Assembly (NCBI GenBank): GCA_903825105.1
Contig: CAIJZI010000008.1
Span: 8,401 to 72,400, forward strand
Length of the DNA: 64,000 bases
Origin: an uncultured bacterium
GTDB taxonomy: Bacteria; Patescibacteriota; Minisyncoccia; Phycocordibacterales; Phycocordibacteraceae
Reading direction: 5' to 3'
Below the pieces are notes generated by a model. That model did not search any database, had not been told where the DNA came from, and worked only from the letters and a program-made list of their open reading frames with translations. The translations under genes were made by a program, and so were the position numbers. This document shows, one piece after another, positions 15,794-20,702 of this stretch (position 1 is the stretch's first letter; each line of letters begins with the position of its first letter).

Positions 15794-16201
15794 ATGCCTA
15801 CAGCTAAGACTACAAAGCCAATAGCGAAGAAAGCAAAAGCAGCTCCTAAAAAAGTTGCTGCGAAGAAAACCGCACCAGTAGCTGTCGCTCCAGCCGAGCA
15901 CAAGCTGCGCATCCGCGTCTGTGCCTACGAGCACAAGATTCTTGATCTCTCGGTGAAGCAGATTATGGACACCGCCGCCCGCTTTGATGCGGTCGTCGTT
16001 GGCCCAGTCCCGCTCCCGACTGAGATTAAGCGTTGGACAGTGAACCGTTCTACCTTCGTCCACAAGGACGCTCGCGAACAGTTCGAGATGCGCATCCACA
16101 AACGCCTCATAGATATTCTCAATCCTCTCCCGAAGGTGATCGAGGCCCTCACGAACCTCAATCTCCCAAGCGGAGTCACGATAGATGTGAAGATGGTTTA
16201 G
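15794..16201 (+). CDS. rpsJ: 30S ribosomal protein S10 with 30-aa Lys/Ala-rich N-terminal extension
   Basis: Core RIRVCAYEHKILD...THKDAREQFEMRIHKRLIDI matches S10; extra basic N-tail. Confidence 0.93.
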   Translation: MPTAKTTKPIAKKAKAAPKKVAAKKTAPVAVAPAEHKLRIRVCAYEHKILDLSVKQIMDTAARFDAVVVGPVPLPTEIKRWTVNRSTFVHKDAREQFEMRIHKRLIDILNPLPKVIEALTNLNLPSGVTIDVKMV

Positions 16202-16234
16202 CCTGAGCGAAGTCGAAGGCTTGCCAAAAACAAC

Positions 16235-16266
16235 AAAACCGGCTCACGCCGGTTTTGTTGTTTTTG
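16235..16266 (+). terminator. intrinsic terminator after rpsJ
   Basis: AAAACCGGCtcacGCCGGTTTTgttgttttt. Confidence 0.7.
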
Positions 16267-16319
16267 CTTGCATAAAATATTTTATATTATAGAATATTGA
16301 ACGGAGAAAGGAGTCTGGT

Positions 16320-16586
16320 ATGGGATATTTTGTCCCGTTTTTGGTTGAGTGCCGTGGCTGCTGGAACAGGAGTCGGCCTGACAGAAATGTGAAAGAATCA
16401 ATCCGCAAAGTTCTCGCTGGCGAATTCAAAGTCTGCAACAACTGCGGCCGTGATCTCATTGAGATTCAAGTGCCAAACAGAAAAGCGGTGCAGGAAGTTC
16501 TGAAATCGCTCGGAGGAGTTCTTCCGGAACATGTAATCATTGTTGATTACATCGGTGGGAAGTACCCAGCGAGAGGCATCGTCTAA
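16320..16586 (+). CDS. hypothetical zinc-ribbon protein (CxxC...CxxC), inserted between rpsJ and rplC
   Basis: ECRGC...VCNNCG pairs; flanked by terminators on both sides. Confidence 0.45.
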   Translation: MGYFVPFLVECRGCWNRSRPDRNVKESIRKVLAGEFKVCNNCGRDLIEIQVPNRKAVQEVLKSLGGVLPEHVIIVDYIGGKYPARGIV

Positions 16587-16590
16587 CTAG

Positions 16591-16633
16591 CGCACGCAGG
16601 GATCATTGATAATCCTTGCGTGCGTTTCTTTTT
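16591..16633 (+). terminator. intrinsic terminator
   Basis: CGCACGCAGGG...CCTTGCGTGCG stem then TTTCTTTTT. Confidence 0.65.
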
Positions 16634-16682
16634 AAGTAGTTGCATCTTTTTATACTATCGTGTAGAGTACTTGAAACGCTAT

Positions 16683-16749
16683 GTCCTTAGCAAAAGCGAA
16701 GGACCTATGGCAGAACGCGCGATGCGTCTCTGCATCGCGCGTTTTTCTT
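16683..16749 (+). promoter_or_regulatory. structured leader upstream of rplC: two hairpins, the second (GCGCGATGC..GCATCGCGC) followed by U-tract 5 nt before the ATG; attenuator-like
   Basis: Read directly from the sequence; position and shape resemble the L4-controlled S10-operon leader. Confidence 0.4.
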
Positions 16750-16754
16750 AAAAA

Positions 16755-18520: not shown

Positions 18521-19369
18521 ATGAAAACATACAAGCCAACATCAAAGAGCCGCCGAGCAATGACCACGCTCCCATACCGAGAACTTCTCTCGGGCGATGC
18601 TCCACACAAGCCACTCTTGAAAAAGAGCTCGAGCAAGGGTGGGCGTAACAACTTCGGCCGTATCACGGTTCGTCACCAGGGCGGCGGTCAGAAAAAGCGC
18701 TTCCGCGCCGTTGATTTCAAATATGATAAGAAAAATATCCCTGCGAAAATCGAGACCGTAGAATATGATCCGTTTCGCAGTGCCTTCATCGGTCTCGCCC
18801 TCTATCGCGACGGAGAGCGCCGCTATGTCGTCCTTCCAAAAGAGATGAAAGTGGGCAGCACCTTTGTTGTTGGCGAAGAAGTACCGATGACCATCGGTAA
18901 TCGTATGCCACTTGGTAAAATCCCCGTCGGTACCTTTGTTTATAATATCGAGCTCCAGCCAGGCTCAGGAGCTTCGCTCGTCAGAAGCGCGGGCAACTTC
19001 GCAGAAGTGGTCGCGCACGACGCGGGCTATGCACAGATTAAATTGCCATCGACAGAAATTCGTAAGATCTCCGACCTCTGCTACGCGTGTATCGGCGCGG
19101 TCGGCAATGAAGAATACAATCTCGTGGTTATCGGTAAGGCAGGTCGCTCACGATGGCTCGGTATCCGCCCAACAGTGCGCGGAACCGCGATGAACCCAGT
19201 CGATCACCCACACGGCGGTGGTGAAGGTAAGCAGGGAAGAGGCTCTCGTCGAGCGAAGACGATGTGGGGCAAGCCGTCGGGCAAGGGTCAGAAGACGCGC
19301 ACACCAAAGAAATACTCAAATGTGTTTATTGTCTCCCGCCGCAAGGTTGGAAAGAGAAAGAAAGGATAA
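18521..19369 (+). CDS. rplB: 50S ribosomal protein L2
   Basis: 282 aa; RNRMPLGKIPVG...HPHGGGEGK. Confidence 0.97.
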   Translation: MKTYKPTSKSRRAMTTLPYRELLSGDAPHKPLLKKSSSKGGRNNFGRITVRHQGGGQKKRFRAVDFKYDKKNIPAKIETVEYDPFRSAFIGLALYRDGERRYVVLPKEMKVGSTFVVGEEVPMTIGNRMPLGKIPVGTFVYNIELQPGSGASLVRSAGNFAEVVAHDAGYAQIKLPSTEIRKISDLCYACIGAVGNEEYNLVVIGKAGRSRWLGIRPTVRGTAMNPVDHPHGGGEGKQGRGSRRAKTMWGKPSGKGQKTRTPKKYSNVFIVSRRKVGKRKKG

Positions 19370-19388
19370 AAAAATAATAAAAACAAAA

Positions 19389-19416
19389 AGCCGTTCCGCA
19401 AGGAACGGCTTTTTGT
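19389..19416 (+). terminator. intrinsic terminator after rplB
   Basis: AGCCGTTCCgcaaGGAACGGCTTTTTG. Confidence 0.7.
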
Positions 19417-19472
19417 TGACTTTTGGATGGTTTAGGTAGAGATTGCTTGAGGAAGTAAAAAGTGGAGGCGTT

Positions 19473-19637
19473 ATGCCGTTTGTCATACTGCTCGTGGGAA
19501 TTCAAAGATTTTTTCGATTTCTTGGTGGTGCAAGCGATTACGACAAGATCGTGAAAGATCTCGCAGATGCGAAAGAAGAATCAGAACGTATAAAAGAAAA
19601 GTTCAGAAGATTTAGTGGGAATAATTGGATCATCTGA
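19473..19637 (+). CDS. small hypothetical membrane-anchored protein (54 aa)
   Basis: GGAGG SD 5 nt upstream of the ATG; hydrophobic N-terminus then charged helix; possible but unproven partner of the downstream MazF-like gene. Confidence 0.35.
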   Translation: MPFVILLVGIQRFFRFLGGASDYDKIVKDLADAKEESERIKEKFRRFSGNNWII

Positions 19638-19643
19638 ATCACA

Positions 19644-19672
19644 AAGCCGGCTTGCCAGAGCCGGCTTTTCAT
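19644..19672 (+). terminator. intrinsic terminator
   Basis: AAGCCGGCTtgccagAGCCGGCTT + TTTCAT. Confidence 0.6.
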
Positions 19673-19706
19673 ATTCTTGATTTATACGCATGTTAAAATA
19701 TTTTGG

Positions 19707-20093
19707 ATGAAAAAGTTTTTTGAGTGGATTGGGCTGAAGGAAAAACTTCACGAAACTGCTCATAAGCCGCCATTCGTGTCGGAGCGCGAAATTTGGTGGG
19801 TGAGCCTTGGAGAGAATGTCGGTTCAGAAATGAATGGCAAAAGCGATCGATTTACGAGACCTGCGCTCGTCTTAAAGAAGTTGGCGCACGGTTTCTTTCT
19901 TGTCGCGCCGACCACGACTCAGCATCACGAAGGAAGTTGGTATATCAGAGTCTCGCTCGAAGGAAAAGATGAATATGTGTGTCTCAACCAAATCAGAACG
20001 ATTGACCATCGGCGGTTGTATTCACGTCTCGGCAAGCTCGACGACGATGATTTTAGTAAAGTGAAGGAAGGATTTAAGAAACTGTATCTATAA
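19707..20093 (+). CDS. mazF: MazF/PemK-family endoribonuclease toxin
   Basis: REIWWVSLGENVGSE...RPALVL...LVAPTTTQ...CLNQIRTIDHRRL aligns with the MazF/PemK core; start could be 19677 or 19707. Confidence 0.7.
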   Translation: MKKFFEWIGLKEKLHETAHKPPFVSEREIWWVSLGENVGSEMNGKSDRFTRPALVLKKLAHGFFLVAPTTTQHHEGSWYIRVSLEGKDEYVCLNQIRTIDHRRLYSRLGKLDDDDFSKVKEGFKKLYL

Positions 20094-20357
20094 AATGTTC
20101 CACCGCCTTTTGGGCGGTGGTCGCGGCGAATGCCGAATGTGTTCGTAGTATAGAGCAGCTCTGTTTAAAAAGCAATGAAGTGGGGATAACTAAAAAATAA
20201 GGAAGGGACGGCTGAATAAATCGCGTTTAATTTCACATTTGTCAACGTTCTGGAATGGGCTAGGATTTATGAGGCTGTTTTGGAACAGTAGTTTGACTTT
20301 CAATACGGCTTCCTGTATCTTTCAGGTATCCCGTTAGCGCGGGCTTTTCATTGCTTT

Positions 20358-20702
20358 ATGTCACGCTCAATTAAAAAAGGACCCTTCGTGGATGCAAAGC
20401 TCCTGAAGAAGGTCTCGATTCTTAAGCCGTCAACAGCCGGTGTTATTAAGACATGGGCGCGCAGAAGCCAGATAAGCCCAGAAATGATCGGTTTTACCTT
20501 CGGTGTGCACAATGGTCGACAGCATGTTGAGGTCCTTGTTTCAGAAGAAATGATCGGACACCGACTCGGTGAATTCTCGCCGACGAAGAAGTTCCTTCGT
20601 CACGGAGGAAAGATGCAGAAGGAAATGGAGCAGAAGAAGCAGGAGGCCGAAATCGCTTCTGCGAAGGCTGCTAAGGCGCCGGCTCCAGCCGCTAAGAAAT
20701 AG
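20358..20702 (+). CDS. rpsS: 30S ribosomal protein S19 with Lys/Ala-rich C-terminal extension
   Basis: [12 protein letters not shown]...THNGRQHV core. Confidence 0.95.

Follow-up and report, generated by a model that had tools for sequence, protein, structure and literature searches.

A predicted MazF and small-RNA gene module inserted between rplB and rpsS in the S10 cluster of a patescibacterium

A 64,000-nucleotide (nt) stretch of DNA from an uncultured bacterium of the Phycocordibacteraceae (Patescibacteriota; GenBank assembly GCA_903825105.1, contig CAIJZI010000008.1, positions 8,401 to 72,400 of the forward strand; hereafter the window, numbered from its first nucleotide) was analyzed with respect to a MazF/PemK-like gene located between the ribosomal protein genes rplB and rpsS. 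As judged from sequence comparison, the gene was found to be one half of a two-gene module, in which a MazF-family ribonuclease (RNase) gene is followed by a predicted small-RNA gene that is convergent with it and abuts its stop codon. The sequences point to a compact, horizontally mobile module that resembles a toxin-antitoxin system, and the small RNA is probably the cognate antitoxin or a regulator of the toxin; an antisense, type I-like action is ranked first among the routes considered, with a probability slightly under even (about 0.45). The original prediction had described the toxin as apparently unguarded, having overlooked that the hairpin at 20100-20120 together with the conserved sequence beyond it forms a minus-strand small-RNA gene, which now stands as the candidate guard. 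The features of the module are as follows.

19676-20239: MazF and small-RNA module, 564 bp, delimited by a three-way junction alignment with the empty site of a relative (L092)
19691-19699, plus strand: extended −10 promoter of mazF, TGTTAAAAT, ending 7 nt 5′ of the ATG; no Shine-Dalgarno sequence
19707-20093, plus strand: mazF, 128 amino acids (aa), PF02452
20100-20120: G+C-rich hairpin 3′ of mazF, followed by 237 nt without an open reading frame (ORF); on the minus strand, hairpin B of the small RNA
20089-20099, minus strand: U-rich tail of the small RNA, overlapping the mazF stop codon (20091-20093)
20124-20135, minus strand: hairpin A of the small RNA
20140 to about 20089, minus strand: predicted small RNA of about 50 nt, with an inferred start at 20140, 5′-ACAUUCGG
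20147-20175, minus strand: sigma-70-type promoter of the small RNA, with −10 TATACT (20147-20152), a 17-nt spacer and −35 TTGCTT (20170-20175)

The MazF/PemK-like gene was found to be genuine, as the ORF at 19707-20093 matched the profile PF02452 (PemK_toxin) over profile positions 3-108 of 109 at 61.3 bits (E = 1.2e-16), above the gathering score of 23.1, and the RPALVL, PTTTQ and IRTIDHRRL motifs named in the original prediction were all present in its translation. Matches to the MazF/ChpB models of NCBIfam were weak and below threshold, and the PADLOC defence models matched neither this ORF nor a 54-aa ORF upstream of it. The AlphaFold2 model of the protein (pLDDT 87.3) was compared by Foldseek with the PDB, and the top 50 hits were all MazF, EndoA or MoxT chains (probability 1.00; target-normalised TM-score 0.62-0.77), with the MazF proteins of Staphylococcus aureus, Bacillus subtilis, Mycobacterium tuberculosis and Escherichia coli being the closest. 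When aligned with EndoA of B. subtilis, R51-P52 corresponded to the RP of that protein and PTTTQ to its T-rich motif AITAQ; R51 and T70 were invariant in 26 relatives, and we take them to be the equivalents of the catalytic R25 and T48 of EndoA, with the roles of these residues as known from MazF structures. The MazF-family protein of the window is probably an active endoribonuclease. In toxin family (PF02452), in fold and in the positions of the catalytic Arg and Thr it is like the toxins of the type II systems mazEF, pemIK and chpBIK, whereas the module differs from these systems by (i) the lack of a MazE/PemI gene; (ii) an N-terminal extension of 25 residues; (iii) a predicted leaderless mRNA; and (iv) a convergent RNA partner. 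The extension, which is absent from canonical MazF, has invariant F4, W7, K11, L14 and P22 and is predicted in the AlphaFold2 model to form a helix at residues 2-16. A word-indexed search returned 428 relatives, nearly all of 128-129 aa and 60-89% identical, those with a name being Patescibacteria. A profile search of 1.84 billion cluster representatives returned 1,431 representatives of 50%-identity clusters at E ≤ 1e-10, mostly from Patescibacteria, and most of these matches spanned the whole profile with the first 25 residues included. As a separate observation, the mazF stop codon is lost in three loci (L016, L064 and L076) and in protein P0096, such that the ORF runs through hairpin B into the RNA gene and acquires C-terminal tails such as ...PPRGGGRG.

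The small-RNA gene was characterized in a set of 82 loci, comprising 80 from species-representative genomes and 2 that came from contigs of metagenomes. The flanks of these loci differ, yet all of them were found to share a conserved stretch of DNA that follows the mazF stop codon directly. In the minus-strand direction, the loci have an ordered arrangement of TTGACA, 16-17 nt, TAnnnT, 6 nt, 5′-ACAUUCGG, hairpin A (4 bp), CGCGRCC, hairpin B (7-9 bp) and the tail AAUAUUUAUUU, with the tail being the complement of the last mazF codons plus the stop codon. A covariance model of the element (R1) matched 81 of the 82 loci, always convergent with mazF and abutting its stop, and the single unmatched locus (L045) carries a variant with a longer hairpin A. 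Within the 64 kb of the window the model had one match, at 20083-20140 of the minus strand (56 bits, E = 1e-10). Covariation was examined in the model-fitted alignment, where 98.2% of the cells were paired and 10 of the 11 base pairs showed compensated changes (99 cells); none of 500 shuffles scored as well, and structures slid by 1-3 columns scored far lower. An independent MAFFT/RNAalifold run likewise revealed that the GC to AU and CG to GC changes in hairpin A were fully compensated, with no broken pairs. The core of hairpin B displayed 24 G-U against one A-C combination, which favours the minus strand as the transcribed one, and this hairpin is terminator-like with a U-rich run on the minus strand only. 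The window RNA was calculated to adopt the predicted fold, with an energy of −21.9 kcal/mol (z = −4.4). The predicted promoter is also conserved among the 82 relatives; when counted from RNA position 1, T−12 was found in 81, A−11 in 80 and T−7 in 81, and TTGAC occupied positions −34 to −30 amid positions that were random. A distance of 6 nt from the end of the −10 element to RNA position 1 (the A of ACAUUCGG) was seen in 77 of the 82 loci, a pyrimidine was found at −1 in 81, and a pyrimidine at −1 with an A at +1 is the usual context of a transcription start site. No match to Rfam 15, the pemK motif included, was obtained with the element at E ≤ 10 for the window or at E ≤ 0.1 for ten relatives; the Rfam pemK RNA motif is alike in being an RNA element tied to a PemK-family gene and differs in that no covariance match was found.

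Three side observations concern the surroundings of the RNA gene. First, a DnaA-box-like 9-mer (TTATCCCCA, 20181-20189 of the minus strand), one mismatch away from TTATNCACA, lies just upstream of the small-RNA −35 element. A 9-mer with at most one mismatch to TTATNCACA was found in 20 of 83 loci compared with about 5 expected, 9 of them exact compared with 0.45 expected, and such 9-mers, in either orientation, cluster around position −50 relative to the small-RNA start, at 8-10 nt 5′ of the −35 element (e.g., L018, L019, L025, L030, L033, L038, L043, L055, and L067). Second, an 11-nt perfect inverted repeat (AAAGCAATGAA / TTCATTGCTTT) connects the small-RNA −35 region (20169-20179) with the sequence just 5′ of the rpsS ATG (20347-20357), at about chance level for a region of such size (about 0.15 expected). 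Third, metagenome contigs identical to the window (L002, L003, and L087) end in or beside the small-RNA gene (window 20104-20145), and such breaks of short-read contigs would be expected if the conserved element of about 50 nt is repeated in the community.

The pairing of the two genes was found to hold widely. The module was detected in more than 80 loci, mostly of Patescibacteria, with unrelated neighbouring genes. The association was also approached from the side of the RNA, by means of a DNA pattern that represented its 5′ portion; contigs from metagenomes were searched with this pattern and the first 100 stretches were scored by R1. The model cleanly separated the pattern matches in these stretches into 36 true copies (42.8-77 bits) and many chance matches (no higher than 20.8 bits). 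Of the true copies, 26 were accompanied by a complete, convergent MazF ORF whose end lay 26-34 nt from the pattern, 6 had a partial MazF (by contig end or truncation), 2 were at contig ends and 2 were without MazF despite sufficient room; thus, the pairing of RNA and MazF holds in both directions. Among the copies apart from an intact mazF, L112 and L127 retain the RNA only, and L146 and L191 retain the last 22-41 mazF codons beside an intact RNA gene; the retention of the RNA where the toxin is lost or truncated is the kind of decay expected if the RNA is an antitoxin. Tandem MazF paralogues of 31-39% identity (in L049 and L059, and two in L061) were each found to have a convergent TTGACA-16-TAnnnT promoter of their own, followed by an RNA of the same design and a different sequence (e.g., 5′-ACAAAUGGCUUCGGCC), and the 5′ ACA is kept in the divergent paralogue RNAs (ACAAAUGG and ACAUUAGG). 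Such arrays comprise two to three divergent paralogues with their own RNA genes (L061 2475-3895, L049 2372-3387, L059 1662-2795, and L086 1507-3384), and in L086 the entire module appears as a recent duplication.

Relatives of the toxin on annotated plasmids fell into two groups. Those that align from residue 3-4, and so retain the N-terminal extension, are without an annotated antitoxin (Nitratiruptor, Helicobacter suis, Helicobacter sp., and Campylobacter jejuni pVir), and those that align only from residue 24 (Bacteroides and Leptospira) overlap an annotated AbrB/MazE gene. By eye, the four Campylobacterota plasmids were each seen to have a convergent (extended) −10 promoter followed by 2-3 hairpins, with the final hairpin lying directly against the stop codon, and the stem changes between the two Helicobacter plasmids were compensated; R1 had no significant match on the Campylobacterota plasmids. 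No MazF relative was found in viral contigs, and annotated phages had only distant copies in Campylobacter prophages. The plasmid pVir is reported to carry an RNA antitoxin and protein toxin pair, cjrA and cjpT (Shen et al. 2016, Mol Microbiol 101:909, PMID 27291507; cited in PMC7826846 and PMC10470494). The plasmid has one PemK/MazF gene (NC_005012 30630-31034), which aligns from residue 3, is the only recognisable toxin gene there and has no annotated antitoxin. Similar to the module, and as on the Helicobacter and Nitratiruptor plasmids, a hairpin abuts the PemK-like stop codon and a convergent TGnTATAAT promoter lies downstream; the differences are that the proteins are 31.6% identical and that the pVir RNA is not detected by R1. 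The pVir pair is a probable distant relative of the module, if CjpT is, as may be the case, the product of the PemK-like gene. On the Nitratiruptor plasmid (L089), a 62-aa ORF (KTIRVEDDLWDKFKKIA..., 1955-2143) that is ribbon-helix-helix-like by sequence lies past the region of MazF and the convergent RNA; it may encode a protein antitoxin of that relative, or it may serve in plasmid copy control.

The expression signals of the toxin gene were also compared. A TAnnnT hexamer was found to end 4-12 nt before the mazF start (mode 6-7) in 47 of 68 loci (control, 12%), with a TGn extension in 24 of the 68 (control, 1.2%), and a Shine-Dalgarno-like sequence preceded mazF in only 2 of 69 loci. Since the −10 element is close to the ATG and a Shine-Dalgarno sequence is lacking, the mazF mRNA is probably leaderless, and it is probably weakly expressed. 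The near-consensus promoter of the RNA compared with the weak promoter of the toxin is an asymmetry typical of toxin-antitoxin pairs.

A search for a protein antitoxin agreed with the statement of the original prediction that no canonical MazE/PemI is evident. In the window, no ORF of the MazE, AbrB or ribbon-helix-helix (RHH) families was found near the toxin. In the 80 loci from species-representative genomes, the nearest flanking ORFs belonged to 73 Pfam families upstream and 88 downstream, with no MazE, AbrB or RHH family among them and no recurrent neighbour family; the neighbours include RNase Y, FtsZ, Mur ligases, penicillin-binding proteins, DNA polymerase I, triosephosphate isomerase and nucleoside diphosphate kinase, and the sole neighbour found repeatedly was another PemK. 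Clustering of all ORFs of 25-120 aa within 400 nt of the toxin in these loci yielded no clusters other than shadow frames of either mazF or the RNA element.

The sequence comparisons establish the family of the protein, the conservation, covariation, strand and promoter of the RNA gene, the strict co-occurrence of the two genes and the limits of the insertion, and from these it is inferred that the RNA is produced, that the protein is toxic and that the RNA neutralises it by one route or another. How the small RNA may act is best accounted for, at the probability given above, by an antisense mechanism. In such a mechanism, mazF would be read from a leaderless mRNA under a weak, extended-−10-only promoter, and a strong sigma-70 promoter on the opposite strand would make an RNA of about 50 nt consisting of 5′-ACAUUCGG, hairpin A, hairpin B and the U-rich tail. 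The toxin mRNA would be expected to read through the RNA gene, since no plus-strand terminator follows mazF, and would thereby carry at its 3′ end a sequence able to pair with the whole of the small RNA; the RNA duplex, together with convergent transcription, may lower the stability or the output of the toxin mRNA. Type I systems in which a convergent antisense RNA overlaps the 3′ end of the toxin gene include txpA/RatA, bsrG/SR4 and bsrE/SR5 of B. subtilis, and type I pairs with enzymes as toxins include SymE/SymR and RalR/RalA. The module is like the type I systems in that the 3′ end of a convergent small RNA overlaps the 3′ end of the toxin gene, and in that a strong RNA promoter is combined with weak toxin signals. 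The opposite-strand overlap was found at the DNA level in 81 of the 82 loci and in the window, and overlap of the transcripts would be expected from it. The pVir pair is a probable precedent for an action of this type. The module differs from these systems in that the toxin is a 128-aa soluble RNase of the MazF fold instead of a membrane peptide, that the RNA is only about 50 nt long, and that the single-stranded RNA sequence is conserved across phyla, which antisense pairing alone does not need.

Several points weigh against this antisense account. The single-stranded parts of the small RNA (ACAUUC and CGCGRCC) are at least 90% conserved, although a purely antisense RNA needs no conserved primary sequence, and the small RNA is identical at 51 of 51 positions between the window and L007, whose proteins are 88% identical; the conserved unpaired sequence and this identity would fit recognition by a protein better than antisense pairing. 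Classical type I toxins are small hydrophobic peptides and not enzymes. The existence of the transcript, the position of its ends and the extension of the mazF mRNA into the RNA gene are themselves predictions, and the toxicity of the MazF subfamily of the window is presumed. The conserved start position of mazF has no ATG, GTG or TTG in 14 of the 82 copies (ATA, ATT, ATC or other; e.g., L011, L021, L023, L035, L038, L049, L055, L061, L065, and L067), and these copies could have odd starts on a leaderless mRNA or be silenced. Lastly, the RNA alignment was first built from loci chosen by their protein, which is offset in part by the RNA-first search.

A second possibility, which we consider tentative and less likely than antisense action, is that the small RNA neutralises the protein directly in a type III-like manner, by binding the MazF dimer as a pseudo-substrate, perhaps through the N-terminal extension. 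An RNA that starts at the A of ACA(U) would present the recognition sequence and lack the preceding nucleotide with the cleaving 2′-OH. The MazF proteins of B. subtilis and S. aureus cut U^ACAU, and these are the nearest solved relatives of the protein in the window. Also consistent with direct binding are (i) the conservation of the unpaired nucleotides, at a level of at least 90%, with the RNA being more conserved than the protein; (ii) the 5′ ACA retained in the divergent paralogues; and (iii) the correlation of the N-terminal extension with the absence of MazE. ToxN, a type III toxin, has a fold akin to that of MazF, and the module is like the type III systems (ToxIN, CptIN, and TenpIN) in that an endoribonuclease toxin is combined with a structured RNA of conserved sequence, as expected for recognition by a protein. 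Its layout, however, is opposite to that of the known type III loci, as a single copy of the RNA lies downstream of the toxin gene and convergent with it; the toxin, a true MazF rather than a ToxN/AbiQ protein, had no PADLOC match; and tandem repeats like those of ToxI were not found in 19300-20420, except for an A-rich 8-mer. Nor did the mazF coding sequences display a marked avoidance of ACA or ACAUU when compared with synonymous shuffles (z = −0.6 and −0.1, respectively), and UACAU was mildly depleted (z = −2.9), such that self-avoidance is not decisive. A more specific and still more doubtful form of the idea is that the module represents a new kind of RNA antitoxin, in which a single-copy convergent RNA of about 50 nt would inhibit MazF as a 5′-terminal substrate mimic, resistant to cleavage because its first nucleotides are the ACA of the recognition motif, the N-terminal extension would take the place of the surface that binds MazE, and the whole would have spread in Patescibacteria leaving target duplications of 9-129 bp.

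It is unlikely, and less probable than either of the neutralising routes, that the downstream element is not an antitoxin at all and serves as a 3′ stabiliser or terminator, or as an outward promoter for insulation or mobility. In that case the protein would lack toxicity, would serve as an RNase in housekeeping or defence, or would be restrained by its own N-terminal extension. The invariant residues of the extension, which could be autoinhibitory, are compatible with such a view, as are the several copies without a canonical start codon and the long target duplications, which suggest an uncommon mode of mobility that might involve the conserved end. In contrast, the sigma-70 promoter at a fixed distance, the pyrimidine/A start, the covarying hairpins and the terminator on the minus strand only have the look of an expressed RNA gene; copies that retain the RNA and have mazF lost or truncated (L112, L127, and L146) are as expected of an antitoxin that outlives its toxin; and the paralogues carry matched RNAs of their own.

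The remaining explanations depend on the position of the module, which lies in an S10-type cluster on the plus strand comprising rpsJ (15794-16201), rplC, rplD, rplW, rplB, rpsS, rplV, rpsC and further genes. The gap between rplB and rpsS measures 988 nt compared with 5-15 nt at most other junctions of the cluster, and its G+C content is 0.40-0.47 versus 0.50-0.60 in the flanks. Outside the module, the junction contains the following features.

18521-19369, plus strand: rplB (L2), PF00181 and PF03947; left edge of the variable junction
19382-19417: 16-bp perfect hairpin 3′ of rplB, with an A-run and a T-run on its two sides
19473-19637, plus strand: 54-aa ORF with GGAGG 5 nt 5′ of its ATG and a hydrophobic N-terminus
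19643-19668, plus strand: intrinsic terminator of the 54-aa gene, a hairpin followed by a T-run; kept in L092
20239-20321, plus strand: two promoter-like sites 5′ of rpsS, TTGTCA-16-TAGGAT and TTGACT-17-TATCTT
20358-20702, plus strand: rpsS (S19), PF00203; right edge of the variable junction

The boundaries of the module were defined with the aid of L092, a relative whose L2 protein is 92% identical to that of the window and which has the same rplB-rpsS junction without mazF. In L092, the terminator of the small ORF (...GGCTTTTCATATT) is joined straight to TGTCAAGGTTCTGGAATGG..., which runs into the rpsS leader and rpsS. The flanks are common to the window and L092 up to 19675 on the left and from 20240 on the right, and thus 19676-20239 is an inserted module. 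It is bounded by an imperfect 9-bp direct repeat, with TTTCATATT (19667-19675) as the left copy, which is the T-tail of the 54-aa-gene terminator, and TTTCACATT (20231-20239) as the right. The insertion in the S10 cluster that the original prediction had noted was borne out. Both promoter-like sites 5′ of rpsS are found in L092 as well and so are resident and outside the module, and a hairpin related to that at 19382-19417, which looks like a bidirectional terminator after rplB, occupies the equivalent place in L092, which assigns it to an older island and not to the MazF module. From these comparisons, the 54-aa gene, the terminators to the left of the module and the promoter-like sites before rpsS are resident, with the S10 cluster having been split here before the insertion took place. 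Other relatives (L2 87-90% identical) have different small unannotated ORFs at the rplB-rpsS junction and upstream of rplC, and the parts of the gap outside the module (19370-19675 and 20240-20357) had no similarity to other MazF loci. The names of the best L2 matches place the organism among Patescibacteria of the Paceibacterota/Kaiserbacteria-like kind. The position of the module inside the S10 cluster is incidental, and in its lineage the rplB-rpsS junction is an island of variable content.

Direct repeats of host sequence were observed to flank the module in 26 of 78 loci (e.g., L022, L083, L039, L043, L051, L040, L019, L012, L025, L053, and L028). Their length is very variable, from 129 bp and 94 bp at 100% identity, through 100, 85 and 81 bp at about 86%, down to the 9 bp of the window; mismatched pairings of left and right flanks never gave more than 12 nt. 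These repeats are unlike the classical signature of a transposase, and some of them provide a second copy of the promoter and initial codons of the gene downstream. The S10 cluster of the window itself displays further irregularities. A terminator-like hairpin with a T-run (CCCG..CGGG and CTTTTC, 20330-20357), kept in L092, lies directly 5′ of the rpsS start, and a terminator-like 10-bp stem (16716-16741) followed by TTTTT lies directly 5′ of the rplC start (region 16716-16754); the two could be attenuators or leaders of restarted transcription units. A second island (16202-16754) lies between rpsJ and rplC and contains a 42-nt palindromic terminator (16225-16266) and an 88-aa ORF (16320-16586) with two CxxC pairs, a strong ribosome-binding site and no Pfam match, followed by another terminator and a promoter-like stretch; relatives have other small ORFs there.

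The idea that a solitary, unguarded RNA interferase was recruited into the ribosomal protein operon as a regulator, the unusual regulatory arrangement which the original prediction had proposed, was found to be highly improbable. It would account for the location on the same strand between rplB and rpsS and for the lack of a protein antitoxin, yet the module occupies unrelated sites in more than 80 genomes, between unrelated housekeeping genes, and the empty site of a close relative already contradicts the idea. Furthermore, the resident terminator upstream and the rpsS promoter region downstream are both kept without the module, and relatives hold other small genes at the same junction.

Least credible of all is the 54-aa ORF as the antitoxin, a candidate that was rejected: it lies next to mazF on the upstream side, reads in the same direction and is preceded by a strong Shine-Dalgarno sequence, yet it forms a separate unit insulated by its own terminator (as had been described), has no Pfam or NCBIfam match, is absent from all 80 other MazF loci, and has as its only homologue P0272 (79% identity over 63%), which is located at the same junction in L092 where there is no MazF.

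RNA-antitoxin systems and MazF toxins are both already known, and pVir may hold an experimental example of a MazF-like toxin with an antisense RNA. As far as the literature searched and Rfam show, what is new is the RNA family, its strict pairing with an N-terminally extended MazF subfamily in Patescibacteria, the probable leaderless toxin mRNA and the anatomy of the insertion; the literature search returned no description of a MazF with a convergent small RNA in Patescibacteria. MazF is a textbook type II toxin, genes annotated as "type II PemK/MazF family toxin" that lack an adjacent antitoxin tend to be set aside as orphans, and Patescibacteria are largely without CRISPR. The present comparison corrects the idea of a toxin recruited to regulate the ribosomal operon and reveals instead a large MazF subfamily consistently paired with a promoter-bearing, structured small RNA in place of MazE. 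The cultured plasmid relatives (H. suis, Nitratiruptor, and C. jejuni pVir) make this pairing directly testable. If the RNA is the antitoxin, (i) many "orphan" MazF genes would be mis-typed; (ii) a new RNA family would be available for Rfam and for toxin-antitoxin finders; and (iii) a single toxin fold would be seen to have changed over between antidotes made of protein and of RNA.

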